DNA from: an uncultured Gammaproteobacteria bacterium
Lineage (GTDB): Bacteria; Pseudomonadota; Gammaproteobacteria; UBA9214
NCBI GenBank assembly: GCA_963827755.1
Contig: CAWHCQ010000009.1
Span: 54,464-118,463, forward strand
Direction: 5' to 3'
Length of the DNA stretch: 64,000 nucleotides
Of this stretch, positions 5,053 through 63,131 are shown piece by piece. Made by a program: the position numbers and the translations under genes. The notes beneath the pieces were generated by a model. That model was not told where the DNA came from, ran no database searches, and worked only from the letters and a program-made list of their open reading frames with translations. The first letter of the stretch is position 1, and every line of letters starts with the position of its first letter.

Positions 5053-5076
5053 GGGTCAGACTCACTACTGTCCCAC
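5053..5076 (+). repeat. Family C half element
   Basis: GGGTCAGACTCACTACTGTCCCAC; related copies near 10009, 12023 (inverted), 15222 and 18047. Confidence 0.6.
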
Positions 5077-5170
5077 ATAATCATTACGAAAGATTATTGA
5101 ATGCTGCTATTCCGGTGATTACATTGTGTTGAGCGGTATGTGGACATGAAATTCCAAAACAATAATAAAC

Positions 5171-5256
5171 TCATACCCGCGAAGACGGGTATCCAGTAAG
5201 TCACTGATTAGCCGGGGCACAAAATTCCTGGATTCCCGTCTTCGCGGGAATGACGG
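5171..5256. repeat. Inverted pair of GTCAT-CCCGCG-type palindromes
   Basis: TCATACCCGCGAAGACGGGTATCCAG ... CTGGATTCCCGTCTTCGCGGGAATGACG. Confidence 0.7.
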
Positions 5257-5271
5257 CGTGGAGGCCGGGAC

Positions 5272-5454
5272 TCAGTCGTTACCGGATTCTCTGCCCAATG
5301 CGTTACCTATCGTGGCAGACATTGTAGCGATGACCAGAAAAACGATAAACCCGAAGCCTGCGTTGCCTTCATTGCCAAAACCGTTTCTCAGCATGAGATA
5401 TATGGCGAACAGATAGGCGCCACCTGCGATGTAGCCCAGAATTTTACGTATCAT
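5272..5454 (-). CDS. Small two-TM membrane protein
   Basis: 60 aa, two hydrophobic helices, GGAGG RBS. Confidence 0.6.
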   Translation of the reverse strand: MIRKILGYIAGGAYLFAIYLMLRNGFGNEGNAGFGFIVFLVIATMSATIGNALGRESGND

Positions 5455-5594
5455 GAAAAACCTCCCTGCCGGTAGAATTAGGAGATCTCATCAGCGCCTG
5501 TGCATGTACTGATAATCCCCGTCAGGCTGTATATCGGCAGAAAGCTGAATTTCTGAATAATGGTATCAGGGCATATTTTCTCCTTGCATTAGAG

Positions 5595-6548
5595 TTAGAT
5601 GCGCCCCGACACCGTATTCTCCCTGACTATCCATACGTCATCTATTCCGAGCTTTTCTTTAACCGGCACGGCCGCGGCCTTTGCCGCCCTTACCGTGGGG
5701 AAGCCCGTTACCTGCAAGCGCCAGTACGTCCTGCCCTTGACTTCAGCGCTATGGATTTCCACCGCAATATCCATGGATCGCGCCCTGGCGGCAGACAGTT
5801 CTATATTTCCCTTGTTTCGTGAAGACATGAGGTTTATCGCCCACGGGCCCTTTTTATCGGCGGTTGCCGGTTTGGCGGGCGTCTGTGCGGCTGTTTTCTT
5901 GCTGGCCATGGAAGCCCGTGTGACAGGTGTTTGGGGTGTCATTCCGACAGCGGTCTTGCCTGCAACTGCTTTTGGTCCTGAAGTCGGGCCCGCGCTGGTG
6001 GGCTGCAGCTGTGCAGCCCCGGCCCTGATCGTTGCTTCTGCAGCCGGCAGGACGTCAGTCCGGGTGCCTGCGACTGGCGTCGATTCCGGAATATTGGAAA
6101 GCCCGGCCACGGGCGTCTTCCCTGACGGCGGTTTAGCCGCCGCCGGCTTCAGGCTCTCAGGCCGCGCCGGGGAGTTGATCTGTCCGGGGCTGTCGCCGCC
6201 GGCTGCCGGTGTGCCCTGTACGGGCCTGCCGGGTAAGCGTTGGGGAATGCGCTGTCCAAGTTTCCTGTCCAGCGAGGCGATGGCATTGCCCAGTGCCGCC
6301 ATCCGCGCATTCAACGAGGTATACCTGCCCTCCAGCAGGGAGGCGTTGAATACCTGTTCCCGCATTTCGGAAAGCTCGGAGGCCTGCCTGTAGGTGAGTG
6401 ATTCCAGCTTGCTTAGCCGGTTGTTTACACCGGTCGTGAAGAGGTAAACGCCTGTGATGCAGATGGCAAGGACAATGATAAGGTATCCATAGTAGAAAGC
6501 CCGGTGGGAGCGCTTGTTACGGGGTGGCTGTGGTGCATTTGCCTGCAT
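5595..6548 (-). CDS. SPOR domain membrane-anchored protein
   Basis: Start MQANAPQ at 6548; TM, low-complexity linker, C-terminal WAINLMS..YWRLQVTGF..DVWI. Confidence 0.8.
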   Translation of the reverse strand: MQANAPQPPRNKRSHRAFYYGYLIIVLAICITGVYLFTTGVNNRLSKLESLTYRQASELSEMREQVFNASLLEGRYTSLNARMAALGNAIASLDRKLGQRIPQRLPGRPVQGTPAAGGDSPGQINSPARPESLKPAAAKPPSGKTPVAGLSNIPESTPVAGTRTDVLPAAEATIRAGAAQLQPTSAGPTSGPKAVAGKTAVGMTPQTPVTRASMASKKTAAQTPAKPATADKKGPWAINLMSSRNKGNIELSAARARSMDIAVEIHSAEVKGRTYWRLQVTGFPTVRAAKAAAVPVKEKLGIDDVWIVRENTVSGRI

Positions 6549-6624
6549 GGCTGCCTCGGTATCTGTAATGGGTTGTTGACAGCCTGAAATATACGATGAT
6601 TTTCGGAGTATAAGAAGCACAAAT

Positions 6625-6677
6625 GGTGTCGAAGCACATTTAACTCTGATATAAGAAGCAAATGTGCTCCGACATCC
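6625..6677. repeat. Family A palindromic element
   Basis: GGTGTCGAAGCACATTT..AAATGTGCTCCGACATCC, between divergent genes. Confidence 0.85.
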
Positions 6678-6690
6678 CTTATCCGGCCCA

Positions 6691-8568
6691 ATGAACACGC
6701 ACGCCAAAACCGCCGCTAGCGGGAATCTCCAGGCGATTCTCGACGAAATCAATGCCCTGCTGCAGGCCGCCAACGGCATCGATGAAACGCGCGCCAAGAA
6801 AGTGCGCAATGCCATCGAAACCCTGCGCAACACCGGCAACACGCTCGCTGCCGGGGAAGAACAGCCCGCCGATGGCCCGCCGGCCGATGACGACACCGCA
6901 GAAGACAAGGCGATGAATGCGCAAATCGATACCGCCCTGGAAGAGCTGCGCATGCGCGTACACAGGCAGGTGCAGCGCCGCAACCGCGACTATGAGAAAG
7001 CACAACAGCTGATGGATGAGGTAGAAACCGCGCTCAAGGCGAACGAACTGCAATCGGCGGAACGCGCCTATCACAAGACGATGTCCGTCATGGGGAATAT
7101 CCCGGGGCTGTCCGAACAGCGCTGGCAGGACATCGAAAAGCGGCTGAAGCGTGTCCGCCCGCAGCTGCGCAAGCTCGAGTCCTGGCGCCACTGGGGTACC
7201 ACACAGGCACGCCGGCAACTCATCGACCAGGTAAAGCAGCTGAAAGACGCCGGCCTGCCGCCGGAAAAACTCGCCGTGCAAATAAAGCAGGCACGCGAGC
7301 AATGGCAGGCCTGGAACAAATCCGGCGATCACTCGGGCAAAGGGCTGTGGAAGGAATTCGACAGCACTTGCGAGGAGGCCTACAAACCCTGCGCCGTGCA
7401 TTTTAAAAAGCTGAGGAAACTCCGCGCGGAAAACCTTGGCCAGCGCCAGGCCATTATTGATGATCTTGACGCGCGCTACGCGTCGACCGACTGGAAACAT
7501 CCCGACTGGCGCGACATCAACAAATACACCAGTCAGGCCCGCCGCAATTTCTACAAAATCGGTCATGTCGACAACAAGCATCGCAAGCCGCTTGCCAGGG
7601 CACTGGACGAGGCGCTTGAAAAATTTGAAGAGCACCTCGGCAGCGAACGCGAGCGCTCCCTGAGAATCCGGGAAAAGCTCATCACCGATATCGAGGCACT
7701 GGACGAAGTGGTCAACCTGCGCGACGCCCTCGAGCGGCTTGAAGCACTGAAAAAACAATGGACGGTCACGGTCACCGGCAAGCGCACGCTGGAAAACAAA
7801 CTGTGGGAGCGCTTGCAGGCGGCCTGCGACCGCACCTACCGGCGCCGCGATGCCGAACGCAAGCAACGGGATGCCGAATGCAATGCAAACCTGAAGCAAA
7901 AGCAGGCGCTGATCGAGGAACTGACCGGCGCCGCCGCAGCGGGCGACGCGGAATTGCTTGCCAACACCTCGATACTCGCGCGGACCAGGCAGCAGTGGGA
8001 AACCATCGGCCGGGTATCGCGCAAGGATGAACAAGGACTGGACAAGCGCTGGCGTGCGGCACAACAGCAATTCACTTGCGCCCGGCAGGCTGCGGAATCC
8101 ATGGCCCATGCCTCTGCGCTGGATAACCTCGCCAAACGCGCCGCCCTGTGTAGTCGGTGGGAGCAGGCTGTCCTGACCGGTAGCGCGATCCAGCCGGATG
8201 CTGTCGAGGCCGAGTGGGCCGCCCTGCCCGCGCTTGCCAGCGCCTATGCCGCGGCAATCCAGCAGCGCTTCAGCCAGGCCCTCAACCGTCCCGACGACAC
8301 GACACTGTCAAGCAACCATGCAGCGAAGAAAGCGGTCTGTCTCAAGCTGGAAGTCCTGCTGGAACTGGAATCACCGCAAGACTGCCAGGCCGAACGCATG
8401 GCCTACAAGGTCGAACGGCTCAATGCAGCAATGAAAAAGACACTCGACGCAGAGGACTCGCCCGAGGACCTGCTGCTGGCGGCACTGACCACCGGCGCCG
8501 TACCTGCCGAGGCCGCCGGGGCCATCGAAAGACGCATCGAGGACTGCCTGGCGCGTTTCAAGCCGTAA
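6691..8568 (+). CDS. DUF349 domain protein
   Basis: Repeated LWxxFxxACD / NLxQKQALI helical repeats. Confidence 0.8.
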   Translation: MNTHAKTAASGNLQAILDEINALLQAANGIDETRAKKVRNAIETLRNTGNTLAAGEEQPADGPPADDDTAEDKAMNAQIDTALEELRMRVHRQVQRRNRDYEKAQQLMDEVETALKANELQSAERAYHKTMSVMGNIPGLSEQRWQDIEKRLKRVRPQLRKLESWRHWGTTQARRQLIDQVKQLKDAGLPPEKLAVQIKQAREQWQAWNKSGDHSGKGLWKEFDSTCEEAYKPCAVHFKKLRKLRAENLGQRQAIIDDLDARYASTDWKHPDWRDINKYTSQARRNFYKIGHVDNKHRKPLARALDEALEKFEEHLGSERERSLRIREKLITDIEALDEVVNLRDALERLEALKKQWTVTVTGKRTLENKLWERLQAACDRTYRRRDAERKQRDAECNANLKQKQALIEELTGAAAAGDAELLANTSILARTRQQWETIGRVSRKDEQGLDKRWRAAQQQFTCARQAAESMAHASALDNLAKRAALCSRWEQAVLTGSAIQPDAVEAEWAALPALASAYAAAIQQRFSQALNRPDDTTLSSNHAAKKAVCLKLEVLLELESPQDCQAERMAYKVERLNAAMKKTLDAEDSPEDLLLAALTTGAVPAEAAGAIERRIEDCLARFKP

Positions 8569-8570
8569 AT

Positions 8571-8615
8571 GGTGTCAGCCTGTTTTCCGCTTATGTCGAA
8601 AAAGGGGCCGGAATT
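8571..8615. repeat. Adjacent A and B half elements
   Basis: GGTGTCAG right after the DUF349 stop, then AAAAGGGGCCGGA. Confidence 0.55.
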
Positions 8616-8699
8616 TCCTGACCATATCGGAAACAGACATAATATTCAGGCGCAGCGTCGCCCCCACCCGGAACCGGAAAACAGCCGAGGAAAATCCCC

Positions 8700-16282: not shown

Positions 16283-16338
16283 AAAAGGGGCCGGATACAA
16301 TTTCAGATTCCATTTGAAAATTGTATCCGGCCCCTTTT
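16283..16338. repeat. Family B palindromic element
   Basis: AAAAGGGGCCGGATACAATTT..AAATTGTATCCGGCCCCTTTT. Confidence 0.9.
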
Positions 16339-16849: not shown

Positions 16850-16894
16850 GGCCGAATGAATTCGGCCCTACAGTAGGGTCGAATTCATTCGACC
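16850..16894. repeat. GTAGGGCCGAATTCATTCGGCC-type REP doublet
   Basis: GGCCGAATGAATTCGGCCCTACA GTAGGGTCGAATTCATTCGACC. Confidence 0.8.
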
Positions 16895-17044
16895 AGCGAT
16901 GTTTAATAACCGGTACGGAGGCGTTTATCGGTTTAATGCCTGCATTCTTTTCCGGGGACGTGCAATAGCAACCACCGTCATGGCAACACTGATTAACAGG
17001 TAACGGGTGCCAGAGCACATTTTCCATAATCACACCAGCACGCT

Positions 17045-17767: not shown

Positions 17768-17784
17768 CTACAGAAAAAGCTACG

Positions 17785-17834
17785 GGTGTCAGAGCACACT
17801 ACCACTTGTATCAGGGTTAAATGTGCTGACACTC
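17785..17834. repeat. Family A element (slightly deleted)
   Basis: GGTGTCAGAGCACA..AAATGTGCTGACAC. Confidence 0.8.
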
Positions 17835-17856
17835 TTTTCTCTGTTAACCGCTCCAC

Positions 17857-18951: not shown

Positions 18952-19015
18952 TAAAGGGTGTCAGAACACATTTAACACTAATATATAAGGAACAAATGCG
19001 CTCTGACAACCTTTA
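18952..19015. repeat. Family A element
   Basis: TAAAGGGTGTCAGAACACATTT..AAATGCGCTCTGACAACCTTTA. Confidence 0.85.
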
Positions 19016-50671: not shown

Positions 50672-50685
50672 CTACCCCCTTGCGC

Positions 50686-51657: not shown

Positions 51658-51716
51658 GGCCGCCCTCCTTCTCCCACAGCGGGAGTGTTCCGAGGAGACA
51701 GTATGCAGACCCTGGT

Positions 51717-51733
51717 GGCTCACAGGATGAGCC
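51717..51733. promoter_or_regulatory. Candidate WYL-regulator operator
   Basis: GGCTCA-N5-TGAGCC, 11 bp upstream of a CATACT -10-like box for the ARPP-1 gene. Confidence 0.5.
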
Positions 51734-51749
51734 GCTGAAGGTGGCCGGA

Positions 51750-52721: not shown

Positions 52722-52783
52722 GTGATCTGCCTCCCGGTCTTCACACACTACACAACTGTTACAGGCGCAACCCCTTCAGTAAT

Positions 52784-52837
52784 AAAAGGGGCCGGATACA
52801 TTTTCTGATTACATTCGAAAGTTGTATCCGGCCCCTT
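52784..52837. repeat. Family B element (opposite orientation of spacer)
   Basis: AAAAGGGGCCGGATACATTTTCTGATTACATTCGAAAGTTGTATCCGGCCCCTT. Confidence 0.9.
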
Positions 52838-52843
52838 CCCCAC

Positions 52844-52904
52844 TCCTTACGTCTCGCCTCAAGCGCGCGGCGTAGCCGCGTCGCTTTGGAGACGATTGTT
52901 ATGC
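52844..52904 (-). mobile_element. attC site (R' degenerate)
   Basis: GCATAAC overlapping the DUF2283 stop; central CGCGGCGTAGCCGCG. Confidence 0.75.
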
Positions 52905-53096
52905 CGCAATACCTTCAATAGTTAAATGACTTACATCGGTACGCTGGCTTGCATGCTCAAATGTTATTGCGCATACGTTACCTTTTGCATCAACATCTAG
53001 CACTGTGTTTTCATCGAGATCTTTTGATTCTGCAATTTCATCATCGCGGAACTCAATATAGAGGGTATCCGTATCTTCGAAATACTTAACTTTCAT
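52899..53096 (-). CDS. DUF2283 antitoxin
   Basis: MKVKYFEDTDTLYIEF..LDVDAKG...ITFEHAS. Confidence 0.88.
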   Translation of the reverse strand: MKVKYFEDTDTLYIEFRDDEIAESKDLDENTVLDVDAKGNVCAITFEHASQRTDVSHLTIEGIAA

Positions 53097-53329
53097 GATT
53101 TATATCCTCGATCAAAAAATGCGTTGTGAATGGTTTCGCCATCCGATAACAATATTACCCGCAGATATTTACCCTGCGCTTCTTCGATCTTAGCCCATCG
53201 GCGAATTCGGCCATCTGCTTGAATGTATTCTTGCTCTGGATGATCAATAACAAGCTAAATCCATTCGTCTTTAATAACTGCACGGTCTTTTCTGGTCCGA
53301 ATCGTTTGAAAATAATTAGTGGTTTTCAC
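53093..53329 (-). pseudogene. Cognate toxin (RelE/DUF4258-like) with in-frame TAG
   Basis: Own translation: VKTTNYFQTIRTRKDRAVIKDEWI*LVIDHPEQEYIQADGRIRRWAKI..YLRVILLSDGETIHNAFFDR; ATGA overlap with the antitoxin. Confidence 0.8.
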
Positions 53330-53347
53330 TGCGTAAAATCCTTTTTG

Positions 53348-53407
53348 GCATAACGCCTCGCATCAGCGGCCCAGCTTTACCGGGGCCGTTGCATGCGCTT
53401 GTTAGGC
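53348..53407 (-). mobile_element. attC site of the cupin cassette
   Basis: GCCTAAC (stop) ... GTTATGC on the minus strand; 60 bp. Confidence 0.85.
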
Positions 53408-53845
53408 GTCACTATCGTTGTGTGTCTCGGTCTGGCGATTTGCGTCACCTTGACCCGGAGAGAACGGTAGAACCTTGTCCTGTTCGGCTGGATCATTACG
53501 AGCGACGACGGCGCGCGCGGGCTCGGTTGCACTGAGATTGATTGCTTCATGAGGAATACCCGGCGGGACGAAGAGAAAGTCGCCTGCCTGGCTAACCACT
53601 TCGTACTGTAGTGCCGACCCCCAACGTGTGCATACGGTTCCTTCCAGGACATAGATACCGGTTTCGTAACCGACGTGGATATGAGGCTCGGCCCGAGCGC
53701 CTGGCGGGATGACCACCAGGTGCATGGACAGTCCCGTGGCATTGACTGTCTGTCCAGAAATGCCAATAAAGTAGGGCAAACGCTGTCGCGTCATGACCTC
53801 ACTGTCTGGCCTGACACTCTGAACCTTTGGCTCGTGGTTGTTCAT
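53402..53845 (-). CDS. Cupin domain protein (cassette)
   Basis: PHIH..YETGIY, GDFLFVPPGIPHEA.N. Confidence 0.88.
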   Translation of the reverse strand: MNNHEPKVQSVRPDSEVMTRQRLPYFIGISGQTVNATGLSMHLVVIPPGARAEPHIHVGYETGIYVLEGTVCTRWGSALQYEVVSQAGDFLFVPPGIPHEAINLSATEPARAVVARNDPAEQDKVLPFSPGQGDANRQTETHNDSDA

Positions 53846-53877
53846 TGTGGTAGTCCCTCAGTACAGGTACTCATGAT

Positions 53878-54002
53878 GCCTGACGCCTTGCCAAGTAGCT
53901 AAAAATACTGCCACTGCACCCAATTTGAACGCGATAAACACCTAAACCGATATGAGCAGCAAGCGCCACGCATTTATAGCCTGCTTAAGCAATTTATTAG
54001 GC
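53878..54002 (-). mobile_element. Degenerate long attC of the RraA cassette
   Basis: GCCTAAT (stop) ... GTCAGGC on the minus strand. Confidence 0.6.
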
Positions 54003-54611
54003 TTTTTTAGCAGCTTCGATTACTTGTTGTATTTTTAACCTGTGGTTAACTTCCCAGTCAGACAGGGTCATATTTTTTTCTACATCCGATATTGCCTTAG
54101 CCGCCCGGTAAGTTTCCAGCGCCCTGGATTTTGGAATAACAGCTATACCTTCGATATCTGCTACTATGATATCTCCTGTGCAAACACTCACCCCACCACA
54201 AATAATCGGTGCACCTGATTCGATGTACTGTTGTTTCCTGCCAGGAACAGGAAATACGCCCCTGGCATAAACGGGGAACTCCATTTCTGCTATTTCACCT
54301 GAATCCCGAACCACACCGTCGATAACAAAGCCTCTAATGCCTCGCTCTTTAGCGACGGCACAGACATTACCGCCAGCAACGGCATATTTAGTATCTACAC
54401 CGTCAACGATCACGATTGAGCCTTCAGGAGCTTCATATATTGCAGAGTGGAGCATCAAGTTATCGCCTGAAGCCAATTGAACCGTATAGGCTGGTCCTGA
54501 TATCCGCTTCATATCCTGCCAAAGAGGACGTATAGATATATCAATAAATTGATCTCGATCTAATACGTTCCCATAGTCAGTTGTTGCTAGTGTGGAAAAG
54601 TCCTGTTCCAT
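53997..54611 (-). CDS. RraA / HMG aldolase family protein (cassette)
   Basis: GPAYTV..GDNL, VIDGVVRD, GDIIVAD.EG. Confidence 0.88.
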   Translation of the reverse strand: MEQDFSTLATTDYGNVLDRDQFIDISIRPLWQDMKRISGPAYTVQLASGDNLMLHSAIYEAPEGSIVIVDGVDTKYAVAGGNVCAVAKERGIRGFVIDGVVRDSGEIAEMEFPVYARGVFPVPGRKQQYIESGAPIICGGVSVCTGDIIVADIEGIAVIPKSRALETYRAAKAISDVEKNMTLSDWEVNHRLKIQQVIEAAKKA

Positions 54612-54645
54612 TTTCGATCCCTTAACTGGATTGTCTACCGGATAA

Positions 54646-54741
54646 GCCTGACGTTGTGTTCAGCTGCGCTTGACGGCAACTGCTCGCAGCGGCAGCGAAG
54701 GAAGGTTACTGTCAAACGTCAGCTGCAACACCTTGTTAGAA
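54646..54741 (-). mobile_element. attC site whose cassette gene is missing
   Basis: TTCTAAC ... GTCAGGC on the minus strand; stems CAGCTG and TTGAC/GTCAA. Confidence 0.8.
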
Positions 54742-54745
54742 TAAA

Positions 54746-54797
54746 GGTGTCAGAGCACATTTGTTGCTTATATTAGAGTTAAATGTGCTCTGACACC
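54746..54797. repeat. Family A element
   Basis: GGTGTCAGAGCACATTTGTTGCTTATATTAGAGTTAAATGTGCTCTGACACC. Confidence 0.92.
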
Positions 54798-54800
54798 ATT

Positions 54801-55115
54801 CAACCAGGCCAACCCCACCCAGGTCGAATGAATTCGACCCTACATTTCACCGCCGATCAGCAACCTGGAGATTTGTAGGGCCGAATTCATTCGGCCAACC
54901 CCAGCGACACCAGGCACAACCCCACCCGAGGTCGGAATAAGGATTCAGGACCCTACATCTTCATCCCCAGATCAGCAACCCGGAGATTGTAGGGCCGAAT
55001 TCATTCGGCCAACCCCAACCAGGCCAACCCCACCCAGGTCGAATAAATTCGACCCTACATTTCTTCCCCGATCAGCAACCCGGAGATTGCAGGCCGAATT
55101 CATTCGGCCAACCCT
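54801..55115. repeat. BIME-like tandem array of three ~105-bp REP doublet units
   Basis: GTCGAATGAATTCGACCCTACA..GATCAGCAACC..GTAGGGCCGAATTCATTCGGCC x3; A half follows at 55129-55147. Confidence 0.85.
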
Positions 55116-55253
55116 ACTGATTATTCCCAAGGTGTCAGAACACATTCAGGTCACATGCTTGATCCACATCAATGCGCCCGGAGTTGAAACAAGCTAGCTT
55201 CTAAACTACCAACAGCTATGTAGCGGTCAGTAAACCAAACGGAGTACGACATC

Positions 55254-55535
55254 ATGGCTTGCCATAACCCCGGATGCCTGGGGGAATACGATTTTGACCA
55301 GATCGCGTTTTTCGCCCGCAAGCGTTTTATCGAGGGTTGCCAGACCGTCACCTTGCTCGAGCAGGCGCGGTCGCAGCGCGAAAAGGAAGAGATTGCACTG
55401 GTCTGCATGCTGGATATTGCGGATGACCAGGTCCGTGACCTGCAACTCAGCTGCCAGCACAGCGAGCAGTGCAAAGTGACCACCTGCAGGAGCCAGCTGA
55501 AAACAATGATCGCCGCGGAACTGGCGGTTCAATAA
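55254..55535 (+). CDS. Hypothetical protein
   Basis: 93 aa with GGAG RBS. Confidence 0.55.
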   Translation: MACHNPGCLGEYDFDQIAFFARKRFIEGCQTVTLLEQARSQREKEEIALVCMLDIADDQVRDLQLSCQHSEQCKVTTCRSQLKTMIAAELAVQ

Positions 55536-55608
55536 CGAAATCCAGGTCAGATAGGGTTTCCCTCTGTCAGCTGAAACCAGATCGACCAGTTCTGTTTCAC
55601 TGATACCT

Positions 55609-56655
55609 TTATTTATTCAAATCCTGCTTCTGCTCCCGCAGTCGCTCCCGGTATTTCCTCCTGGCAAGCTCCTGCATATCTTCGACGGTATCGCGTTCAT
55701 CTAGAATCTCGCGCCCCAGCAGGGTCTCGATGGCATCTTCCAGCGTCACGATGCCCGCAGTCTGGCCGAACTCGTCCTCGACCAGGAACAGGTGCGCGCG
55801 TTGTTTTATGAACTGATCGATCAACTGCTGAATCGGCAGTTTTTCGGATACCCGGAAAACGGGTTTGGCGAACCGAACGATGGGTTCCGAACCATGCCCT
55901 GCACGCTCCGCTTCAAACAGGTCCGCGCGAATGACCTTGCCCTTGATATCATCGATACCTTCGCCATACACCGGCATCCTTGTAAACTGGCGTGTATCGG
56001 CATCATCCAGCGCATCCGTGACCGTCACGTCTTCAGGCAGCATGTGCACGACACTGCGCGGCGTCAGCACCTCCCCGGTCGGAATCTCGTGCAGCTTGAG
56101 AACATTGGCCAGGTATTCATTCTCCTGGGATATCAGGGTGCCGTCCCTGAGCCCCAGCGAGGCCAGGGCGATGATTTCCTCGCGGGTGATTTCTTTCCCG
56201 TCGTGGTGACTGAACAGCCGGGTCAGGCGCGTGGAAATCCAGACCAGCGGATAGACCAGCTTCACCAGCCAGGCAATGACAAAAGCGGCCGGTATCGCCA
56301 GCTGCCGCCAGAAGGTCGCGCCCAGCGTTTTCGGAATGATCTCGGAAAAATACAGGATGGCCAGCGTCAGCAACACCGCGATCAATGTTTCCCATTTTGC
56401 CCCGAACACCTGCACGGCCTGCGAACCGACCCCGGCGGCACCCATGGTGTGTGCAAAGGTATTGAGAATCAGGATACTGGAGAGCGATTCATCCAGGCGT
56501 TCCCTGGCTTGACTCAGCACACCCCCGGCACGCGGCCGATCCGACAGGGTTTTCTCGGCAAAGCTCGGTGTCACTGACAACAGCACGGCCTCGAGTATCG
56601 AGCAGAGAAATGAAACGCCGATGGCGATGGCCAGGTAGACAAACAGCAAGGTCAT
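55609..56655 (-). CDS. CNNM/DUF21-CBS (hemolysin-family) protein
   Basis: SFLCSILEAVLLS, ILNTFAHT, FSEIIPKT, VTLEDAIETLLG. Confidence 0.92.
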   Translation of the reverse strand: MTLLFVYLAIAIGVSFLCSILEAVLLSVTPSFAEKTLSDRPRAGGVLSQARERLDESLSSILILNTFAHTMGAAGVGSQAVQVFGAKWETLIAVLLTLAILYFSEIIPKTLGATFWRQLAIPAAFVIAWLVKLVYPLVWISTRLTRLFSHHDGKEITREEIIALASLGLRDGTLISQENEYLANVLKLHEIPTGEVLTPRSVVHMLPEDVTVTDALDDADTRQFTRMPVYGEGIDDIKGKVIRADLFEAERAGHGSEPIVRFAKPVFRVSEKLPIQQLIDQFIKQRAHLFLVEDEFGQTAGIVTLEDAIETLLGREILDERDTVEDMQELARRKYRERLREQKQDLNK

Positions 56656-56741
56656 GATGGATTCCCGTAAATAGCCAGGGTTTCATTCTTGACCATTCGT
56701 GGCATGGATGTCCATGGCAGCCGGGGAGGCCGCACAATATT

Positions 56742-56820
56742 GGTGTCAGAGCACATTTTCTGCTTATATTAGAGATAATTGTGCTCTGACCCCTATTATT
56801 CGCTGTATCCGGCCCCTTTT
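56742..56820. repeat. Family A element plus B right half
   Basis: GGTGTCAGAGCACATTT..TGTGCTCTGACCCC then TGTATCCGGCCCCTTTT. Confidence 0.88.
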
Positions 56821-56830
56821 CCATTTGGTA

Positions 56831-57181
56831 TCAAGCCGCATGAATCTCAAATTCAGTTGCTTTGACAACCGGTTTTACGGATCTATTATTTTTTCTAAGT
56901 TCAACGAATCCATAATGTTCCATAGTTTTAAGTGTTCTGGATAAGTTACTCATTTGACGGCCAGCAGCATCTGCAAGCTCGGTTAAGGTTTCTGGCTGCA
57001 TTTCTGCGATCATCTTCAGCAAGGCACGATTTTGATCACTCAACACTTCCGCGACTGATTTCATGGAAGGAAACCAGATCCCGGGTTCATTTCTTTTAGG
57101 TTTATAGTCCCCGCGCGCAATGGCCAGAACACGCTTCCTGATCTTGTCCTGGGGCATAATACCAATCACTATTTTTTTCAT
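56831..57181 (-). CDS. HTH antitoxin / regulator
   Basis: WFPSMKS.AEVLS..N, ELA...GR..SNLSRTLKTM. Confidence 0.85.
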   Translation of the reverse strand: MKKIVIGIMPQDKIRKRVLAIARGDYKPKRNEPGIWFPSMKSVAEVLSDQNRALLKMIAEMQPETLTELADAAGRQMSNLSRTLKTMEHYGFVELRKNNRSVKPVVKATEFEIHAA

Positions 57182-57202
57182 AACTCACCTCGAATCACCA
57201 AA

Positions 57203-57583
57203 TCACTTCATACCTTTAAGCACCTTATCCACTTCTCTGAAAAAGTCTGCAAGCAACTGCTGAGCAGATTCAAATACATATGGAACCCCTTTATCGCCGG
57301 GTTTCATATGCTTGTGATCATAAGCAATATGCCTGCCCACAAAGCGCCCTGCCTTTCCCGTTTTAATAAAATGCGCATTGTCAAAACCCAGCAGTCTTTT
57401 TCCATACCTGTCATGCAGTGTCAGACAATATTTAATGCCATGCGGGCACTCATCAGTAGCCTGAGCAAGTTTTCGCGCTTCAATCTTTACCCAGCATCCT
57501 CCTTCCTGAGCCAGGATTTCACCATCAAGGTCTAATAAGTAATCCAGTCCCTTGTCATCGCTCACAGTGTACCGCACTCTCAC
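57203..57583 (-). CDS. DUF6516 / TumE-like toxin
   Basis: PHGIKYCLTLHD..G.RLLGFDNAH, DHKH, LLADFF.EVD. Confidence 0.82.
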   Translation of the reverse strand: MRVRYTVSDDKGLDYLLDLDGEILAQEGGCWVKIEARKLAQATDECPHGIKYCLTLHDRYGKRLLGFDNAHFIKTGKAGRFVGRHIAYDHKHMKPGDKGVPYVFESAQQLLADFFREVDKVLKGMK

Positions 57584-57584
57584 T

Positions 57585-57607
57585 TACTTATCATCCGTTG
57601 ATAAGTA
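57585..57607. promoter_or_regulatory. Operator palindrome upstream of the TA pair
   Basis: TACTTATCA-N5-TGATAAGTA. Confidence 0.6.
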
Positions 57608-57731
57608 TTAATTTTTGGGGGATTTATTTATTACTACATTCTTTGACTCTAACAATAAAAGCGGCCGGTGACGCCGCCCCCACTGATATTGTTCTTGTCG
57701 GAATACGACTATCTGTCTCGTGCGTAATTCC

Positions 57732-57781
57732 GGTGTCAGAGCATTTGTTATTTATATTAGAGATAAATGTGCTCTGACACC
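57732..57781. repeat. Family A element
   Basis: GGTGTCAGAGCATTT..AAATGTGCTCTGACACC. Confidence 0.88.
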
Positions 57782-57861
57782 TTTATCCCTTTCTAACTTC
57801 GTAACTTTCTACCCGGATGGCAAGGTGAGTATGCACCTCCTCTGGTTTCTTATGCTTTCGT

Positions 57862-58533
57862 CTATGGACCATCTTCCAACTGCTTCAAATATTCAACAAG
57901 CTCATGCATCAAGGTTGTGGGATTGTCAGTGTCATTCCTACCCGCTTCCTGCAGCGCGCGCTTACTGAATGCAATAGCCTGATCAGTTTGATCCATCAGT
58001 TCCTTGAACAACCCTCTATCACCCTTCGAATATCCCGGGATATATCTGATTAATTCCTCAATCAAGCGTGCGCATGCACTCCTGCCGGCTGCACCTGTGT
58101 AGGATCGCGTGCTGAATGTGAAATGCAAAATCAGCCAGTATTCAAAGCACGGAATGGAATTGATAGACGAAAATACCCTTCTGGGCATAGATCGCGCGAC
58201 CTCATCCAACGCCTGTGTATAGCTTGCATGAGTATCCTTATCAAATACGCAAAATACCCGGTCAAAGGCATCATTTTTCCGCCGTTCCTCTGCATATCTA
58301 TTTTTTGCATGCTGTACTACAGAAACAGGACTCGACCCACAGCTACCATCAACTTCTACATTTGCACTGTTTAACTCCAGACAATCAATGAGTTCCCCTA
58401 AATAATTTGGCTCAGTCTTTGATCCTTCACATACAATAAGCACACGATCATACGGCGCACGTCTCGATTTTCTGCGCTCCAGGTCACTGGCCACTCGTGC
58501 CTTGCGCCTGTTATGCAAGTCATCGCTGCCCAC
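57862..58533 (-). CDS. rloB: RloB family protein
   Basis: LIVCEGSKTEPNY, VFCVFDKD, SIPCFEYWLILHF, NPTT. Confidence 0.9.
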   Translation of the reverse strand: MGSDDLHNRRKARVASDLERRKSRRAPYDRVLIVCEGSKTEPNYLGELIDCLELNSANVEVDGSCGSSPVSVVQHAKNRYAEERRKNDAFDRVFCVFDKDTHASYTQALDEVARSMPRRVFSSINSIPCFEYWLILHFTFSTRSYTGAAGRSACARLIEELIRYIPGYSKGDRGLFKELMDQTDQAIAFSKRALQEAGRNDTDNPTTLMHELVEYLKQLEDGP

Positions 58534-59814
58534 TCAGCCCACCATTGCGGACTTGACCTTCTTCAAATAAGGCAAGGCACCATAACGACCAGACAAATAT
58601 CCTCTCTCCAGATTTTCAATTCCCTTACGTGGACTGAAATCAGTTAATGGATAAAGTTTTGTAGCCTGATGTTTATCCTTATCGCAAAACCAGATTTGAT
58701 CCCGCCGAAACACTTCCTGGTTTAGAATCGAGGTATCATGCGTGGAAAAGATCAATTGTGCGTTCTTGGGATTGGTTTCTTTTCCATGAAATAACTTGAC
58801 AAGGAATTCTACAATCAGAGGGTGCAGATTATCGTGCAACTCATCGATGACAAGCACATAACCGTTCTCCAACGTATCCAACCATGGCCCTGCAAGCGCA
58901 AATATTTTCTGAGTACCATCGGATTCATCATCCAAATCGAATAGTACTTTTTTACCACTGTCTGACATATGTGCAGTTTTTACGCTGACAAATGACTTAT
59001 CCTGGTATTTATTAGCGATTTCATCTCTAACAATATCAGGCATATCATCTGGTAAATTATCAATACTGAGCTTTCCCTTTTCAAGTTCAACCCCATCGAT
59101 ATCGATATCAGCCGCCTGTAAAAAAGATACGACCTTCTCTCTCTCATCGTCCTTCTCACACAACTCAATTGAGAAACTAGGCACCCAACGTCCAAAACCA
59201 GCGACATGCAAGGTTTCTGAAAACCATTCAAACACAGGCTTAAGCTGCTGGTTATTTAGCTGAATAGCTGTTGAGAGAAAAAGTGCATTTGAACGGGTCG
59301 CATCAATCCATACTTTTTTTGTACCCGTAAAAAATCCTCCCATCTTCCACTCATATTCTTCTGATTCAGTGTTATAGAAACGATCAAACCAGCGTTGTGA
59401 CTTACCCTCCGGGTAAGCCAATAACCACTCCTCAGTAATACGCTTTGACGTCGCAGCAAAGCCGTATTGATAGCGAACGCCCTGGCTAATGAAGGTAACT
59501 TCAAACTCGCTCGGCTTGTTTTGACTCGCTTCGTTCAACAAGAAAGGTGTAATCGGCAATGTTTCGCCAACCTGGCTTTGCCCGGCAGATTTCAGCACCA
59601 ACTGCTCCATTACCTGCAAGGCTCGAATAACATTCGACTTACCGGCTGCATTCGGACCATAGATAGCGGAACTACGCAACAGAGCGGGAGTGGCCAACGC
59701 GTCTGGCTCGAATGAATTGGTATCTTCCAACTCATCCCCTTTCGCCTTTACCAGGCTCAATGTCGTCTGTTCGCGAATCGACAGGAAGTTAGCAACACTG
59801 AATTCGACTAGCAT
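58534..59814 (-). CDS. AAA_21 ATPase (RloA/AbiEii-like)
   Basis: IYGPNAAGKSN, ESDGTQK, VIDEL..LHP, QLIFSTH, YLSGRYGALP. Confidence 0.9.
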   Translation of the reverse strand: MLVEFSVANFLSIREQTTLSLVKAKGDELEDTNSFEPDALATPALLRSSAIYGPNAAGKSNVIRALQVMEQLVLKSAGQSQVGETLPITPFLLNEASQNKPSEFEVTFISQGVRYQYGFAATSKRITEEWLLAYPEGKSQRWFDRFYNTESEEYEWKMGGFFTGTKKVWIDATRSNALFLSTAIQLNNQQLKPVFEWFSETLHVAGFGRWVPSFSIELCEKDDEREKVVSFLQAADIDIDGVELEKGKLSIDNLPDDMPDIVRDEIANKYQDKSFVSVKTAHMSDSGKKVLFDLDDESDGTQKIFALAGPWLDTLENGYVLVIDELHDNLHPLIVEFLVKLFHGKETNPKNAQLIFSTHDTSILNQEVFRRDQIWFCDKDKHQATKLYPLTDFSPRKGIENLERGYLSGRYGALPYLKKVKSAMVG

Positions 59815-59951
59815 CCTAAATACCCTCTGATGGTAATTTAATGTCTATTTTTGACTATTATCGTCAAAATTAGCATATTAATTAGCCATTGACACTGTTT
59901 ATATCTCTCGCTGTCAATCATTGGGCCCCATGATCGCGCCAAAAGCGAAGT

Positions 59952-59970
59952 AGGGGTCAGTCTGACCCCT
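59952..59970. repeat. Minimal family C palindrome
   Basis: AGGGGTCAG-T-CTGACCCCT. Confidence 0.65.
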
Positions 59971-60001
59971 GTTTCTTTTCTGTTTCTTTTAATAACCCGC
60001 G

Positions 60002-61105: not shown

Positions 61106-61161
61106 AAAAGGGGCCGGATACAATTTTCGAGTTTAATCAGAAAATGTATCCGACCCCTTTT
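61106..61161. repeat. Family B element
   Basis: AAAAGGGGCCGGATACAATTTTCGAGTTTAATCAGAAAATGTATCCGACCCCTTTT. Confidence 0.92.
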
Positions 61162-61190
61162 CAGATAAAGTAATATTTATAATTAAGCGC

Positions 61191-61905: not shown

Positions 61906-61907
61906 AA

Positions 61908-62252
61908 CTATACCCTCAGCTTATTCAATCTACGCTTTGCGGTGGCCAGTTCATTTGATGGTGTTTTCTGAGATTTCTTAACAAAACCATGCAGCAAAAC
62001 AATCTTTTTCTGGTACACGGTGAAAAATGTTCTGGCAATACCAGATGAAATGGTCGACCGTAGCTCCCAAAGATCGACATCCATTTTCCTGGCTAGCGGC
62101 ATTCCTACGGGCCACCCAAACTGTAAGGTCTTGATATCCTCGCCGAGTGTTTTACGATTATCTCGGCTCATGTCCCTAAGCCACTCCCTCACAGGTTCAC
62201 GCCCGGAATCGAGTCGAAAGAAAACTACCGGGATTGGCCTATCCATTGGCAT
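61908..62252 (-). CDS. RelE/ParE-superfamily (Gp49-like) toxin
   Basis: GREPVREWL, WPVGMPL, LWELRS, LLHGFVKKSQKTP. Confidence 0.9.
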   Translation of the reverse strand: MPMDRPIPVVFFRLDSGREPVREWLRDMSRDNRKTLGEDIKTLQFGWPVGMPLARKMDVDLWELRSTISSGIARTFFTVYQKKIVLLHGFVKKSQKTPSNELATAKRRLNKLRV

Positions 62253-62258
62253 TTTAGA

Positions 62259-62286
62259 AGTGTACCATTATTGGTACTTATGTCAA
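62259..62286 (-). promoter_or_regulatory. Sigma70 promoter with overlapping operator
   Basis: TTGACA-16-TACACT; palindrome GTACCA-TTAT-TGGTAC. Confidence 0.65.
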
Positions 62287-62311
62287 GGGCTGCTTATGGT
62301 GATTCAGAGTC

Positions 62312-62370
62312 ACCTAACGCCTGAGCTCAGGGGCGCACAGCGGAGCGACCCTTGGAGCCCGTTGTTATGC
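62312..62370 (-). mobile_element. attC site
   Basis: GCATAAC ... GTTAGGT on the minus strand; 59 bp. Confidence 0.82.
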
Positions 62371-62403
62371 ACTTCCTGGATGCATTAGCTATTTTCATTT
62401 GGG

Positions 62404-63045
62404 CTAGAATATCGACAACTTCTCATCGCTACGTGTCAGATATGGAAGAATCCGGCTAGCAGTCAGCCACGCGATACCAAACGCAACCAATCCGGTAGCT
62501 TCCGCATAAAAAGTAAGCTGTTGGAAACGGTTACTCAATGCGTCATCCATCAGATGATCAACCACCATACTCACCATTGCCAATATAATCGCTAATCCAC
62601 AGCCCCCGTATAAAATCGCCCTCGTACGTGCCTGAGCCCAGCCTTTTTTCCATGCCCTGAGGAAAAAGAAATAGCAGAAAACAGCAAGAATGCTAAACAT
62701 CACTGACGCCGCGATATAGTGAACCATCGGTATGATTTGAGGATGTCCATCGCAGCCACATGGGAAAATCGCCACACAGATAGCGGCCAGTGCCGCCACT
62801 TTACTAAGCCACTTCTCCCGTCTTTCATGGCCATTATATGAGAGGAGAAATGCACTGATTGCAAATAGGAAGCCTACGAATATATTGCCTGACCATAGAC
62901 CTTCATCCCAATACGATGCACTGATGGAGGCAAGTGGTTTTACCGCAAATTTTTCTGTCAGATATGCAAGTGAAATTGCAATAAACCCAACAATAAACTT
63001 CATAGTATGGTTATCAATCTCTGCGTGCTGTTCTTTTGATGCCAT
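62404..63045 (-). CDS. Multi-pass membrane protein (DUF998-like; cassette-derived)
   Basis: SISASYW, FLLSYNG, VHYIAA, EATGLVAFGIAWL; start ATG 63045. Confidence 0.7.
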   Translation of the reverse strand: MASKEQHAEIDNHTMKFIVGFIAISLAYLTEKFAVKPLASISASYWDEGLWSGNIFVGFLFAISAFLLSYNGHERREKWLSKVAALAAICVAIFPCGCDGHPQIIPMVHYIAASVMFSILAVFCYFFFLRAWKKGWAQARTRAILYGGCGLAIILAMVSMVVDHLMDDALSNRFQQLTFYAEATGLVAFGIAWLTASRILPYLTRSDEKLSIF

Positions 63046-63075
63046 GTTTACTTTCCTGTTGCGTGGTGATTGGAC

Positions 63076-63131
63076 AAAAGGGGTCGGATACAATTTTCGA
63101 GTTTAATCAGAAAATGTATCCGACCCCTTTT
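63076..63131. repeat. Family B element
   Basis: One mismatch to 61106-61161, with the same TGGAC left flank. Confidence 0.92.

Follow-up and report, generated by a model that had tools for sequence, protein, structure and literature searches.

Short inverted repeats beside rearranged DNA have been described in several settings. The pdif modules of Acinetobacter plasmids are Xer-dependent and have short inverted-repeat sites at their bounds, with the enzyme encoded elsewhere. Neisseria has Correia elements, dRS3/NIME arrays and 'minimal mobile elements'; abundant intergenic inverted repeats are associated with rearrangement points there, and single-gene modules are swapped between strains. The closest counterpart to the present locus is the REPIN-RAYT system of Pseudomonas and enterobacteria, in which REP doublets occur as hairpins together with a REP-associated tyrosine transposase (parts of PMC3337134, PMC3116915, PMC3390384 and the RAREFAN preprint). 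Where these sources turn to inheritance and location, the RAREFAN preprint describes the systems as mostly vertical, and PMC3390384 calls the variable regions and mobile elements of Pseudomonas 'REP deserts'.

How does the present locus compare? The window, a stretch of 64,000 nucleotides from an uncultured Gammaproteobacteria bacterium, resembles REPIN-RAYT systems in three respects: it carries many short extragenic inverted doublets that fold as hairpins, inverted copies of these repeats border cognate Y1/HUH genes, and there are several families per genome with a RAYT for each. It differs in that the arms of families A and B are not small GTAG-headed palindromes, that the families are clustered instead of spread over the chromosome, and that a genome may hold up to 8 PF01797 matches. 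Moreover, the elements cross species together with gene modules, in blocks that are 95-100% identical, and they occupy the most plastic region, unlike the 'REP deserts' in the account of PMC3390384.

The palindromes lie where the initial annotation put them (Table 1), and its counts of about 15 for family A and 7 for family B agree with ours. Within positions 5053-64000 of the window, family A has 14 clear full copies (14-16 if degenerate ones are counted) and family B has 7. An A element is ~62 nt long with arms of the type AAAGGGTGTCAGAGCACATTT and the centre CTAATATTAG; the B arms read AAAAGGGGCCGGATACA. The inverted units of the palindromes have arms of 20-30 nt, and 0-24 nt separate them at the centre. 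Family C is a GTAG-type REP in which CTAC comes after GGCCGAATGAATTCGGCC. This family is real, but where six complete palindromes had been counted, the same interval has ~14 REP units, with only two tight doublets, and in place of about 20 halves only ~10-12 lone arms were detected in the window. The spacers are indeed asymmetric, but the polarity claimed for each element could not be assigned reliably. Five additional families, D12, D15, D18, I1 and E, had not been named before. The GTAG/CTAC head is missing from the A and B arms and is present in family C and in REP1-3. When six copies were folded as single-stranded DNA, they gave -16 to -24 kcal/mol with z from -6.3 to -9.4, and for all 6 of them none of 200 shuffles folded as well as the native sequence. 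A/T runs border the G+C-rich stems.

Which enzyme belongs to these elements? The guess of a Y1/HUH RAYT is supported because in relatives the A and B arms border RAYT genes, each gene sitting at the palindrome centre. A arms are found on both sides of a 233-aa RAYT gene in G043 (L096) and on the left side of another in G006 (L095), where the contig ends. B arms are found on both sides of a RAYT in G017 (L108), and a truncated B-type RAYT of the own genome adjoins one B arm (L004). This remnant is 91% identical to the B-type RAYT of G017, while the A and B types are 51% identical to each other. These four are the clear arm-flanked RAYTs among 33 loci scanned; the arms of a further locus (L093) are weakly A-like. 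The own genome has no A-type RAYT, as none of its four PF01797 matches carries true A arms, and this speaks against the explanation preferred below. Its other RAYTs have related arms with a common GGGTCAGA core, one of which ends in TATATTAG like the A centre, and one RAYT (L002) has inverted GTAG REPs at its flanks. The PF01797 matches score above the cut-off, and the HUH motif (HVHLL/HVHML) is seen in the RAYT translations. NCBIfam REP_Tyr_transpos was the best family for all three proteins tested; against its cut-off of 80 bits, the B type reached 81.7, while the A type (74.9) and an own RAYT, L001 (74.7), stayed just below.

The distribution of the families is strongly uneven. Positions 5053-64000 make up 2% of the genome and hold 28 of its 58 A cores (1.2 expected), 13 of the 71 copies of family C (1.5 expected) and 5 of the 6 copies of D12; counted as loci, the genome has 39 of A and 13 of B. 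Long hairpins with an arm of at least 16 number 22 in 59 kb and 209 in the whole genome, which gives densities of 3.7 and 0.73 per 10 kb. In the corresponding zones of relatives they are sparser (1.0-2.0 per 10 kb), which again counts against the preferred explanation. In G002, 22 of 26 arm matches fall within two clusters with a RAYT inside one of them, and in G045, 7 of 21 lie in a single 34-kb stretch where a RAYT is also present. The families are restricted to one or two clusters per genome. Family C, the REP1-REP4 of the genome and the RAYT with GTAG REPs are like classical REP/BIME; unlike it, the A and B arms are headless, and classical GTAG REP1 has 93 copies in the genome, 12 of them on the same contig, and none within the island.

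Within the window all full copies lie between called genes. By our own gene calls and Pfam, for gaps from 5030 onward, an element is present in 37 of 55 intergenic gaps (26 of 40 tandem, 6 of 7 divergent and 5 of 8 convergent); 12 of the 18 empty gaps are at most 92 nt, mostly within operons, and 6 exceed 100 nt. The contacts with stop codons proposed earlier hold at 19018, 22833 and 43935. The one at 48646 is made by D12 and not by A, B or C, that at 8568 is a degenerate A arm at the stop codon, and the weak arm near 15429 is 16 nt away from it. Placement between divergent genes is borne out at 16283, 30196, 34657 and 42749, while 6625 rests on a doubtful ORF. GC varies from 0.47 to 0.62 across 4-kb windows.

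Table 1. Elements and modules in the window (positions, feature, strand)
Position	Feature	Strand
5557-5618	degenerate family A palindrome with which the island opens	
6620-6681	family A palindrome	
8567-8617	degenerate A arm at DUF349 stop codon, then lone B arm (8600-8617)	
16283-16338	family B palindrome, arms 100% complementary, divergent genes either side	
16850-16894	family C doublet, two inverted GTAG-type REPs	
17001-17025	lone A arm just upstream of methyltransferase module; homology of G012, G042 and G003 begins at 17021-17025	+
17781-17836	degenerate family A copy	
18952-19015	family A palindrome, 3 nt off stop of Cys-rich gene	
19408-19430	weak lone A arm upstream of Cys-rich gene	-
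22235-22291	family B palindrome	
22811-22833	lone B arm, its end being the DUF533 stop codon	+
23758-29317	five-gene block, 95% identical to G015; holds B 27607-27662, ends at lone A arm 29291-29317	
30194-30254	family A palindrome, arms 100% complementary, adjoins RIO module, divergent genes	
30257-31218	RIO-kinase module; E-type element at 31197-31214	+
34652-34713	family A palindrome, divergent genes for SSF and aldose epimerase either side; bounds on its right the 5.3-kb segment absent from G012	
35734-35789	family A palindrome	
39040-39100	family A palindrome	
40387-40440	degenerate family A copy	
40993-41053	family A palindrome; independent contig (run X3, 40965-41294) spans junction	
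41658-41714	family B palindrome	
42748-42809	family A palindrome upstream of aldo-keto reductase gene, divergent genes	
42869-43993	aldo-keto reductase module and downstream A palindrome (43933-43993)	+
47529-47639	C doublet (47529-47573), then directly A palindrome (47579-47639)	
52784-52837	family B palindrome	
54741-55147	A palindrome (54741-54800), five C REP units, lone A arm (55130-55147); divergent gap	
56737-56820	A palindrome, then immediately lone B arm (56804-56820)	
56778-57792	toxin-antitoxin module (HVO_A0114 and TumE), A elements at both ends	-
57730-57786	family A palindrome	
61106-61162	family B palindrome	
63076-63132	family B palindrome	

Is gene order kept around the elements? 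The synteny claim of the initial annotation is supported in this sense: throughout the contig of the window (C9, at least 118 kb) gene order is scrambled across the genus at the resolution of single genes, whereas three control regions (C11, C21 and C40, the last rich in hairpins) keep a collinear order in 9-11 of 11 good assemblies. Note that equally dense elements among syntenic core genes had been named as evidence to the contrary, and C40 supplies it in part, for palindromic repeats in general. Also, the left half of C9, which is free of A and B, is as scrambled as the element-rich half. The zone contains toxin-antitoxin pairs and small accessory enzymes, at a coding fraction of 0.71-0.77 compared with ~0.9 elsewhere. 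Its modules can be as much as 94-100% identical to those of species with a core identity of 71-90%. For example, the five-gene block agrees at 95% over 5.5 kb with G015, whose core identity is 73-78%; the RIO-kinase module is 94-97.5% identical in six species with cores at ~70-82%; and the toxin-antitoxin module is 99.5-100% identical to that of G012, with a core at 84-90%. The own contig C3 holds near-copies of window modules at 89-99.8% identity. Such a discrepancy between modules and core shows that modules are exchanged between species.

Do the breakpoints of homology fall on the elements? Here also an expectation of the initial annotation was realized, as 20 of the 49 breakpoint clusters are found no farther than 10 nt from the edge of an element, while random placement within the same gaps gives 10.7 +/- 2.6. 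By this statistic a rearrangement at an element looks the same as the insertion of an element that leaves a remainder too short to align. For the other 29 of 49 even the nearest edge is over 10 nt away, and sharp junctions without an element exist, as at 23758. Some edges are striking. Past the lone A arm that closes the five-gene block, the window, G012 and G015 show three different contexts; the left break of the RIO module falls at the identical nucleotide beside A, B or E-type elements, depending on the genome; and the 5.3-kb segment absent from G012 has A elements at both bounds. Homologous genes keep a median flank of 75 nt upstream of the ORF and 2 nt downstream. Tight module borders would also be expected from repeated random rearrangement with selection. 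As for the earlier proposal that the elements are recombination or insertion junctions, the enriched breakpoints speak for it, and the scrambled A/B-free half, the collinear C40 and the B element at 27607, which three species have in an identical position without change, speak against it; that the elements are junctions by mechanism, or that the hairpins drive the shuffling, is a conjecture.

The explanation we prefer, with a probability of about 0.52 for the whole including the roles proposed for the elements, is that of REPIN/RAYT-type mobile hairpins residing in a gene-shuffling zone. A, B and also C are REPIN-type non-autonomous hairpins made of two inverted arms of ~28 nt placed head to head, each family paired with its own RAYT lineage (Y1/HUH, IS200-like), and the autonomous form has the RAYT gene exactly at the palindrome centre. 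The RAYT would recognise the hairpin in single-stranded DNA and copy doublets to new sites between transcription units, mostly near home. Then why do the elements mark the borders of modules? They may be tolerated only between transcription units, often just past stop codons, and they may be carried along with transferred DNA, as with the B at 27607 in the block shared at 95% with G015. What is more, repeated palindromes of 55-62 nt could serve as portable homology and as fragile hairpins, so that inversions, deletions and insertions of incoming DNA would tend to start or stop at them. What is said of hopping near home, of portable homology and of fragile hairpins is our reading of the pattern of the sequences. 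The elements are of a known type (REPIN/RAYT), and it is their setting, confined to an island, that is atypical. A dedicated capture system may exist, but there is no evidence for a site-specific machine of that kind; no integrase, attC site or dif-like core turned up.

The same facts allow the elements to be given a smaller or a larger part. They may be passive passengers in a zone that is plastic for reasons unrelated to palindromes, for instance because accessory genes are under relaxed selection or because foreign DNA is often taken up; REPIN-like elements would then accumulate where they are harmless, arrive with imported DNA, and perhaps double as terminators or RNA stabilisers. The equal scrambling without A and B, the collinear C40 and the B element kept at 27607 favor this, and so do the low coding fraction, which leaves room for insertions, and the A/T runs with G+C-rich stems, which resemble two-way terminators. 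However, element edges have about twice as many breakpoints as placement at random in the same gaps would give, one lone arm repeatedly has a different context beyond its outer edge, and 6 of 7 divergent gaps, where a terminator is useless, hold an element; a simple terminator scan flagged neither A nor B, which is weak evidence since their loops exceed the limit of the scan. We regard the passive account as somewhat doubtful, both on the cause of the plasticity and on the accumulation of the elements. Even with a passive link only, the zone documents genome plasticity of an unusual kind in uncultured Gammaproteobacteria from sediment. Could the RAYT instead mobilise genes as cassettes? Two hairpins, or one hairpin and a cleavage motif, would bracket a gene, and the RAYT would excise the single-stranded segment and reinsert it beside another hairpin, an integrase-free analogue of a chromosomal integron. 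The RAYT gene itself sits as cargo between two arms, A elements stand on either side of the aldo-keto reductase gene in three contexts (two of them, on the own C3 and on G012:C111, at 89% identity with an A element ahead of each), and the nearly identical toxin-antitoxin module lies between A elements too; junctions that arose independently at one nucleotide beside different families, a gene content like that of integron cassettes and the breakpoint enrichment at element edges fit as well. On the other hand, the upstream A lies outside the conserved reductase unit, whose homology begins 60 nt past it, and the median downstream flank of 2 nt means that the 3' element is usually left behind when a gene moves. 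Scrambling is equal in the A/B-free half, the own genome lacks an A-type RAYT, and the search for circular or empty-site junctions, made on contigs only, gave joints with sides of ~20 nt that repeats alone explain. Such mobilisation is unlikely, and so is the reading that RAYT-type HUH transposases take hairpin doublets as ends and move single genes by cutting and pasting them in single-stranded form, inside the zone and also between species once DNA has been taken up. If this were true, REPIN-RAYT, so far viewed as self-contained vertical passengers, would run a platform for gene shuffling and gene sharing.

The zone also invites comparison with chromosomal integron arrays (attC/VCR), as it is a long run of unrelated small modules with imperfect palindromes of similar size between them, rich in toxin-antitoxin pairs and small enzymes, some of them common to several species. 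A typical array has an IntI integrase, attI and a promoter at one end, and its cassettes share one orientation, each being an ORF, mostly promoterless, that is followed by one attC site whose outer core sites are conserved. The present elements might likewise be sites of a tyrosine recombinase, attC-like or exchanged by Xer as in pdif, as the initial annotation suggested by analogy; the imperfect 55-62-nt palindromes with asymmetric centres and the cassette-like genes would suit this. The findings do not support this. The 6 PF00589 matches of the genome all lie off C9, C3 and C8, so that no IntI-type integrase is seen on these contigs, the right end of the zone being cut off by the contig end, and by-eye inspection found no R''/R' core sites in the arms. 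The single dif-like site, on C34, differs in sequence from the A and B centres, and dif lies on non-zone contigs in five relatives; the A and B elements are twice as long as the 28-nt XerC-spacer-XerD sites of pdif modules and lack the 11-6-11 layout. Genes stand in both orientations, the upstream flanks are kept and not the downstream ones, opposite to cassettes of an ORF plus a site, and the arms demonstrably belong to RAYT genes. Recombinase sites are scarcely credible here. The Neisseria systems likewise have other elements and enzymes, and exchange there probably makes use of homologous core genes on either side; in the present zone the neighbouring genes are themselves different. Could the mosaics be false, made by metagenome contigs misjoined at the repeated palindromes? 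The genome is a bin of 52 contigs with 5.4% contamination, many contigs of relatives terminate at elements, and the near-copies on C3 could point the same way. However, A copies are only 61-92% alike and therefore have few long exact words in common, the same clustering and scrambling occur in relatives of 9-20 contigs with contigs of 0.4-1 Mb, the same bins have collinear control regions, and one independent contig spans the TspO-A-RNase T junction. An assembly artefact is very improbable.

REPIN/RAYT are known as vertical elements of the stable chromosome in what PMC3390384 and the RAREFAN preprint say on the subject, and the related elements here behave oppositely. They stand in one or two clusters, in a zone of more than 100 kb scrambled genus-wide, and ride near-identical modules between species that differ by 10-29% in core. 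The zone shows that a long-lived chromosomal 'shuffle zone' is possible without an integron, prophage or conjugative element, and it offers a natural system for asking if the exchange of gene modules is favored by hairpin repeats and HUH transposases. MITEs, which move by cut-and-paste with DDE-type enzymes, have terminal inverted repeats and a target-site duplication; inverted arms are present in the elements of the window, and A/T-rich ends blur the edges of A and B. A different MITE, of ~165 nt with a 9-10-nt duplication, was observed in G012.

What are the palindromes that recur along the window? Repeat searches bore out the palindromes claimed by the initial annotation, and its three families A, B and C were all recovered. 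Family A elements are about 62 nt long, with arms of the type AAAGGGTGTCAGAGCACATTT and a centre CTAATATTAG that is edged by 4-5 variable, frequently non-complementary bases. The arms of family B are AAAAGGGGCCGGATACA, and family C is a GTAG-type REP, reading GGCCGAATGAATTCGGCC and then CTAC; the window also holds further families, D12, D15, D18, I1 and the E type. With arm-level profiles, 36 A-arm and 19 B-arm matches were found on C9, the 118-kb contig whose right end, C9:54464-118463, is the window, every one of them at window position 5557 or beyond. On C9 there are 14 clear and 2 degenerate full copies of A, 7 full copies of B and about 10-12 lone arms, so that the annotated numbers of full A and B copies hold, while the "about 20" halves do not. 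Folded as single-stranded DNA, the six copies tested gave -16 to -24 kcal/mol (z -6.3 to -9.4 for all six). Rfam gave no match at gathering scores across the window. When A copies were compared with the RAYT-bearing copy, the polarity scores differed mostly by 2 or less, which makes the polarity unreliable.

Is there an enzyme that goes with these elements? An HUH/Y1 enzyme like the REP-associated tyrosine transposases (RAYTs) had been guessed, and the arms found around RAYT genes of the genus agree with that guess. Arm profiles were scanned over 33 RAYT loci, 29 fetched from the genus and the 4 matches to the Y1-transposase family (PF01797) in the own bin (L001-L004). In G043 two A arms exactly enclose a 233-aa RAYT gene (L096); the left one ends in CTAATAT, and ATATAAGG precedes the right one. 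G006 has this left arm and gene too (L095), up to the end of its contig, and the RAYT gene of G017 (L108) is bracketed by B arms. There is no A-type RAYT among the four own matches. L002 has inverted classical GTAG REPs on both sides, and L001 and L003 have inverted arms of about 24-28 nt on both sides with the common core GGGTCAGA, those of L003 ending in TATATTAG, which is also how the A centre reads. L004 is truncated; a B arm precedes its start by about 100 nt, and the L004 protein is 91% identical to the B-type protein of G017; A-type and B-type proteins are 51% identical. The best NCBIfam family was REP_Tyr_transpos for 3 of 3 proteins (81.7, 74.9 and 74.7 bits; cut-off 80). Since RAYT genes sit between A or B arms, the A or B palindrome corresponds to two RAYT-unit ends joined without the gene. 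PMC3337134, PMC3116915 and PMC3390384 describe the REPIN in this way, as two inverted REP units plus a spacer, mobilised by a RAYT. Elements A and B are thus alike to REPIN-RAYT in layout and enzyme, but they lack its typical GTAG head, genome-wide spread and vertical inheritance.

Note that the elements are strongly clustered in the genome (2.85 Mb in 52 contigs, 57.4% G+C). Window positions 5053-64000 hold 28 of the 58 A cores of the genome (uniform expectation 1.2), 13 of the 71 C units (1.5) and 5 of the 6 D12 copies, and none of the 93 copies of the classical REP1, 12 of which are on C9. These 59 kb contain 22 long hairpins, defined by an arm >=16, a loop <=30 and no more than 2 mismatches, versus 209 genome-wide, which is 3.7 versus 0.73 per 10 kb. 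The repeat mask was built from repeated 15-mers; 12-mers covered 12.6% of the genome and were discarded. In relatives, 22 of the 26 A-arm matches of G002 fall in C5:196-240 kb (15) and C7:95-126 kb (7), and 7 of the 21 in G045 fall in C3:106-140 kb; a RAYT gene lies within the G002:C5 cluster and another within the G045:C3 cluster. Public genome contigs contain 37 stretches with exact A palindromes, 35 of them from bins of uncultured Gammaproteobacteria or Ectothiorhodospiraceae. The remaining two (L029 and L033) come from a bin labelled Halobacteria archaeon and are most likely mis-binned gammaproteobacterial contigs. A stretch of the own contig C3 carries a full RAYT, seven A-type matches and, in a changed order, near-copies of four window segments: CNNM (96%), aldo-keto reductase (89%), a metallo-beta-lactamase-fold gene (99.8%) and a fourth listed in the table. 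This stretch is paralogous, or else it stems from a co-binned strain. Two other repeats were seen in the genome. One is a composite of about 280 nt with C REP units, which has copies 93-95% identical on C4, C21, C27 and C33 and an inverted partial copy in the window; the other consists of GTGAGAA-type tandem units on C14, more than 100 copies unrelated to the palindromes, where the most repeated words of the genome are concentrated.

Features of the window and of other contigs, with their coordinates
Position	Feature	Remark
Window 2-1129	gene	homolog within the A-arm cluster of G002:C5
Window 19018-19392 (-)	gene of Cys-rich, zinc-ribbon-like protein	124 aa
Window 23305-23537	three tandem 69-nt units in DUF533 gene	86-100% alike; encode a Gly/Ala-rich repeat
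Window 23758	sharp three-way break	without element
Window 23758-29311	block shared with G015	95% identical
Window 27607	B copy	same site in window, G012 and G015
Window 28218-29162	gene left of a three-way divergence	
Window 29291-29317	lone A arm	end of homology of window, G012 and G015
Window 29318-34675	five genes absent from G012	bounded by the lone A arm and the A copy at 34652
Window 30200-30227	sigma-70-like pattern in A copy	faces RIO gene
Window 30257-31218	RIO-kinase module	
Window 40965-41294	match of Logan contig X3	spans an A element
Window 40999-41026	sigma-70-like pattern in A copy	
Window 44924-45062, 48331-48616	composite repeat with C REP units	
Window 50686-52748, 57862-59814	defence-like pairs: WYL regulator + ARPP-1, RloB + AAA_21 ATPase	
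Window 55136-55551	segment also on C3	93%
Window 56778-57792	toxin-antitoxin module	99.5-100% identical in G012
C3:16151-25774	full RAYT, A-type matches, window segments	
C14:20000-50000	GTGAGAA-type tandem units	
G012:C142 ~4525-4700 (L051)	MITE-like insert	
G012:C111 ~3570-3735 (L117)	MITE-like insert	

There is a further question of concern, whether the gene order around the elements is itself unusual. In DNA searches against 30-36 genus genomes, most window genes are 65-100% identical, but they lie on other contigs or in another order. The 18 kb left of the window (C9:36001-54463), which have no A or B, are equally scattered; in G045 they gave 14 matches on 7 contigs. When all C9 proteins were searched by tblastn against fetched regions, homologs from both halves of C9 were interleaved in G042:C9:0-75 kb, G041:C22 and G017:C20, where only pairs or short operons stay adjacent. 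Three control regions, aligned at about 70-80% identity, behave otherwise. The first 15 kb or so of C11:100-118 kb are collinear on a single contig in 11 of 11 good assemblies, C21:80-98 kb is collinear in 9 of 11 (the exceptions are assemblies with 61% and 84% completeness), and the hairpin-dense C40:60-78 kb is largely collinear in 9 of 11. The scrambling is thus specific to the zone; palindrome density in general was dropped as its predictor on account of C40. The zone is chromosomal; in G042 it lies on the same 501-kb contig as the homolog of the C11 control. Its coding fraction is 0.71-0.77 versus about 0.9 in the controls. The idea of terminus plasticity is not supported: GC skew is negative throughout C9 with no switch, and a dif-like site is off the zone, on C34 in the own genome and on non-zone contigs in five relatives (the 52 contigs of the bin are unordered).

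Modules of the zone have also been exchanged between species. Core identity is 84-90% for G012, 71-86% for G015, G031, G032 and G037, and about 70-81% for eleven good assemblies, and zone modules surpass these levels, as in the G015 block and the toxin-antitoxin module of the table. In G037 the DUF481 gene reaches 93.5% identity. The RIO-kinase module is 97.5% identical in G031, 96.4% in G041, 96.2% in G032, 94.6% in G015, 94.0% in G046 and 93.7% in G042, but only 85.8% in G012, the closest relative. Five genomes share the exact nucleotide of its left end; adjoining it are an A element in the window, B in G031 and G046, an E-type palindrome in G041 and, in G015, half a B element whose left context is new. 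The break is 25 nt further in for G042 (A element) and G032 (plain hairpin). In all 7 genomes compared, the RIO stop is followed by an E-type element, either whole or reduced, past which the sequences differ. Past the lone A arm, the window, G012 and G015 run into three different contexts, and G012 joins that point almost directly to an aldose epimerase gene. At the corresponding position G012 lacks the RloB/AAA_21 pair, and its toxin-antitoxin module is followed by the aldo-keto reductase module. RAYT-associated doublets here are REPIN-RAYT by layout and enzyme, confined to a scrambled zone of inter-species exchange. A literature search that was not exhaustive found no paper on such confinement, and the variable regions of Pseudomonas are "REP deserts" according to PMC3390384, a relation that is reversed here.

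How often do breakpoints coincide with elements? The window was aligned with 61 fetched sequences, and all local matches of 250 nt or more and 84% identity or more together gave 92 alignment ends not at a locus end. Merged, these ends make 53 breakpoint clusters. Gaps or their vicinity contain 49 clusters, and 20 of those 49 are at most 10 nt from an element edge, versus 10.7 +/- 2.6 under random placement in the same gaps (0.08% of 5000 trials reach 20), an excess of about two-fold in a statistic that is blind to the difference between rearrangement at an element and plain insertion with a remainder too short to align. The other 29 lie more than 10 nt from every element edge. Upstream of ORFs the conserved flank has a median of 75 nt (43 ends), and downstream one of 2 nt (37 ends). 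Such a pattern is consistent with "promoter plus gene" units pared down in numerous events, or with fast turnover after the stop codon, and is opposite to cassettes of an ORF plus a downstream site. Logan contigs of sediment metagenomes, compared with window positions 40001-60000 (best share 0.44), show joints whose sides measure 19-26 nt, and loose ends that fall on the edges of elements, both of which repeats alone explain.

What do the elements do in this zone? We favour a mixed explanation, with a probability of about 0.52, in which elements would be copied by RAYT with a local bias, might serve as portable homology or fragile sites, and would hitchhike with imported DNA; the last step is partly visible in the B copy inside the G015 block. 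It is also possible, although rather unlikely, that the elements are purely passive, since C40 is rich in hairpins and keeps its gene order, and palindromic repeats can therefore simply occupy existing gaps. The same region speaks against the reading of the initial annotation, recombination junctions of a cassette-like capture array in which a RAYT-like enzyme acts in trans. Such dedicated capture, by active RAYT-driven cassette transfer, appears doubtful, as gene order in the A/B-free half of C9 is no less scrambled than in the element-rich half, zones of relatives hold only 1.0-2.0 long hairpins per 10 kb, and one B copy of the window occupies an unchanged site in G012 and G015. Most breakpoints lie off the edges, one sharp break has no element at all, and the flanks run the reverse way to those of ORF-plus-site cassettes. 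The edge excess itself is compatible with plain insertion, and the metagenomic joints with repeats.

Two other readings have little room beside the mixed explanation. An assembly artefact is very improbable, because A arms cluster in well-assembled relatives too, and the clustering is thus genus-wide rather than the product of a chimeric contig. A tyrosine-recombinase system is hardly credible, with no PF00589 recombinase in the zone and the dif-like sites on non-zone contigs.

The genes of the window (own codon-usage caller, 60 ORFs checked by Pfam, starts approximate) are a run of unrelated accessory functions, with transporters, small enzymes, a two-component pair, defence-like pairs and the toxin-antitoxin genes TumE/HVO_A0114, Gp49 and HicB. 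From 5030 onward, 37 of 55 gaps have an element (tandem 26/40, divergent 6/7, convergent 5/8), and of the 18 without, 12 are at most 92 nt and 6 exceed 100 nt. A simple scan, whose loop limit A and B exceed, found 28 terminator-like sites versus 20.9 +/- 4.2 in shuffles, with 0 at A or B. Promoter-like matches total 14 versus a shuffle mean of 13.0; in two A copies the left arm (GTGTCA) and the centre (TATATT), 16 nt apart, form such a sigma-70-like pattern.

The Cys-rich protein has no Pfam or NCBIfam match and 590 homologs, none named and mostly on short contigs. Its gene is multi-copy in zones of relatives (three copies in G042:C9, one partial, and two in G041:C22) and is frequently 16-140 nt from an A element, although no link to the elements emerged. 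In G032, plain 19-nt hairpins of the type AAAGGGGTCAGACCCCTTT adjoin the RIO and SSF genes (L056, L134). They match the outermost bases of A-like arms, and may be what is left of collapsed elements or else forms that preceded them. A MITE-like insert of about 165 nt, with terminal inverted repeats of the type GGAATGGTGCTTACTTAAG, interrupts a B arm at one site in G012 and an A arm at the other, with about 9-10 nt of target duplicated at both, and it may prefer A/B palindromes as targets.
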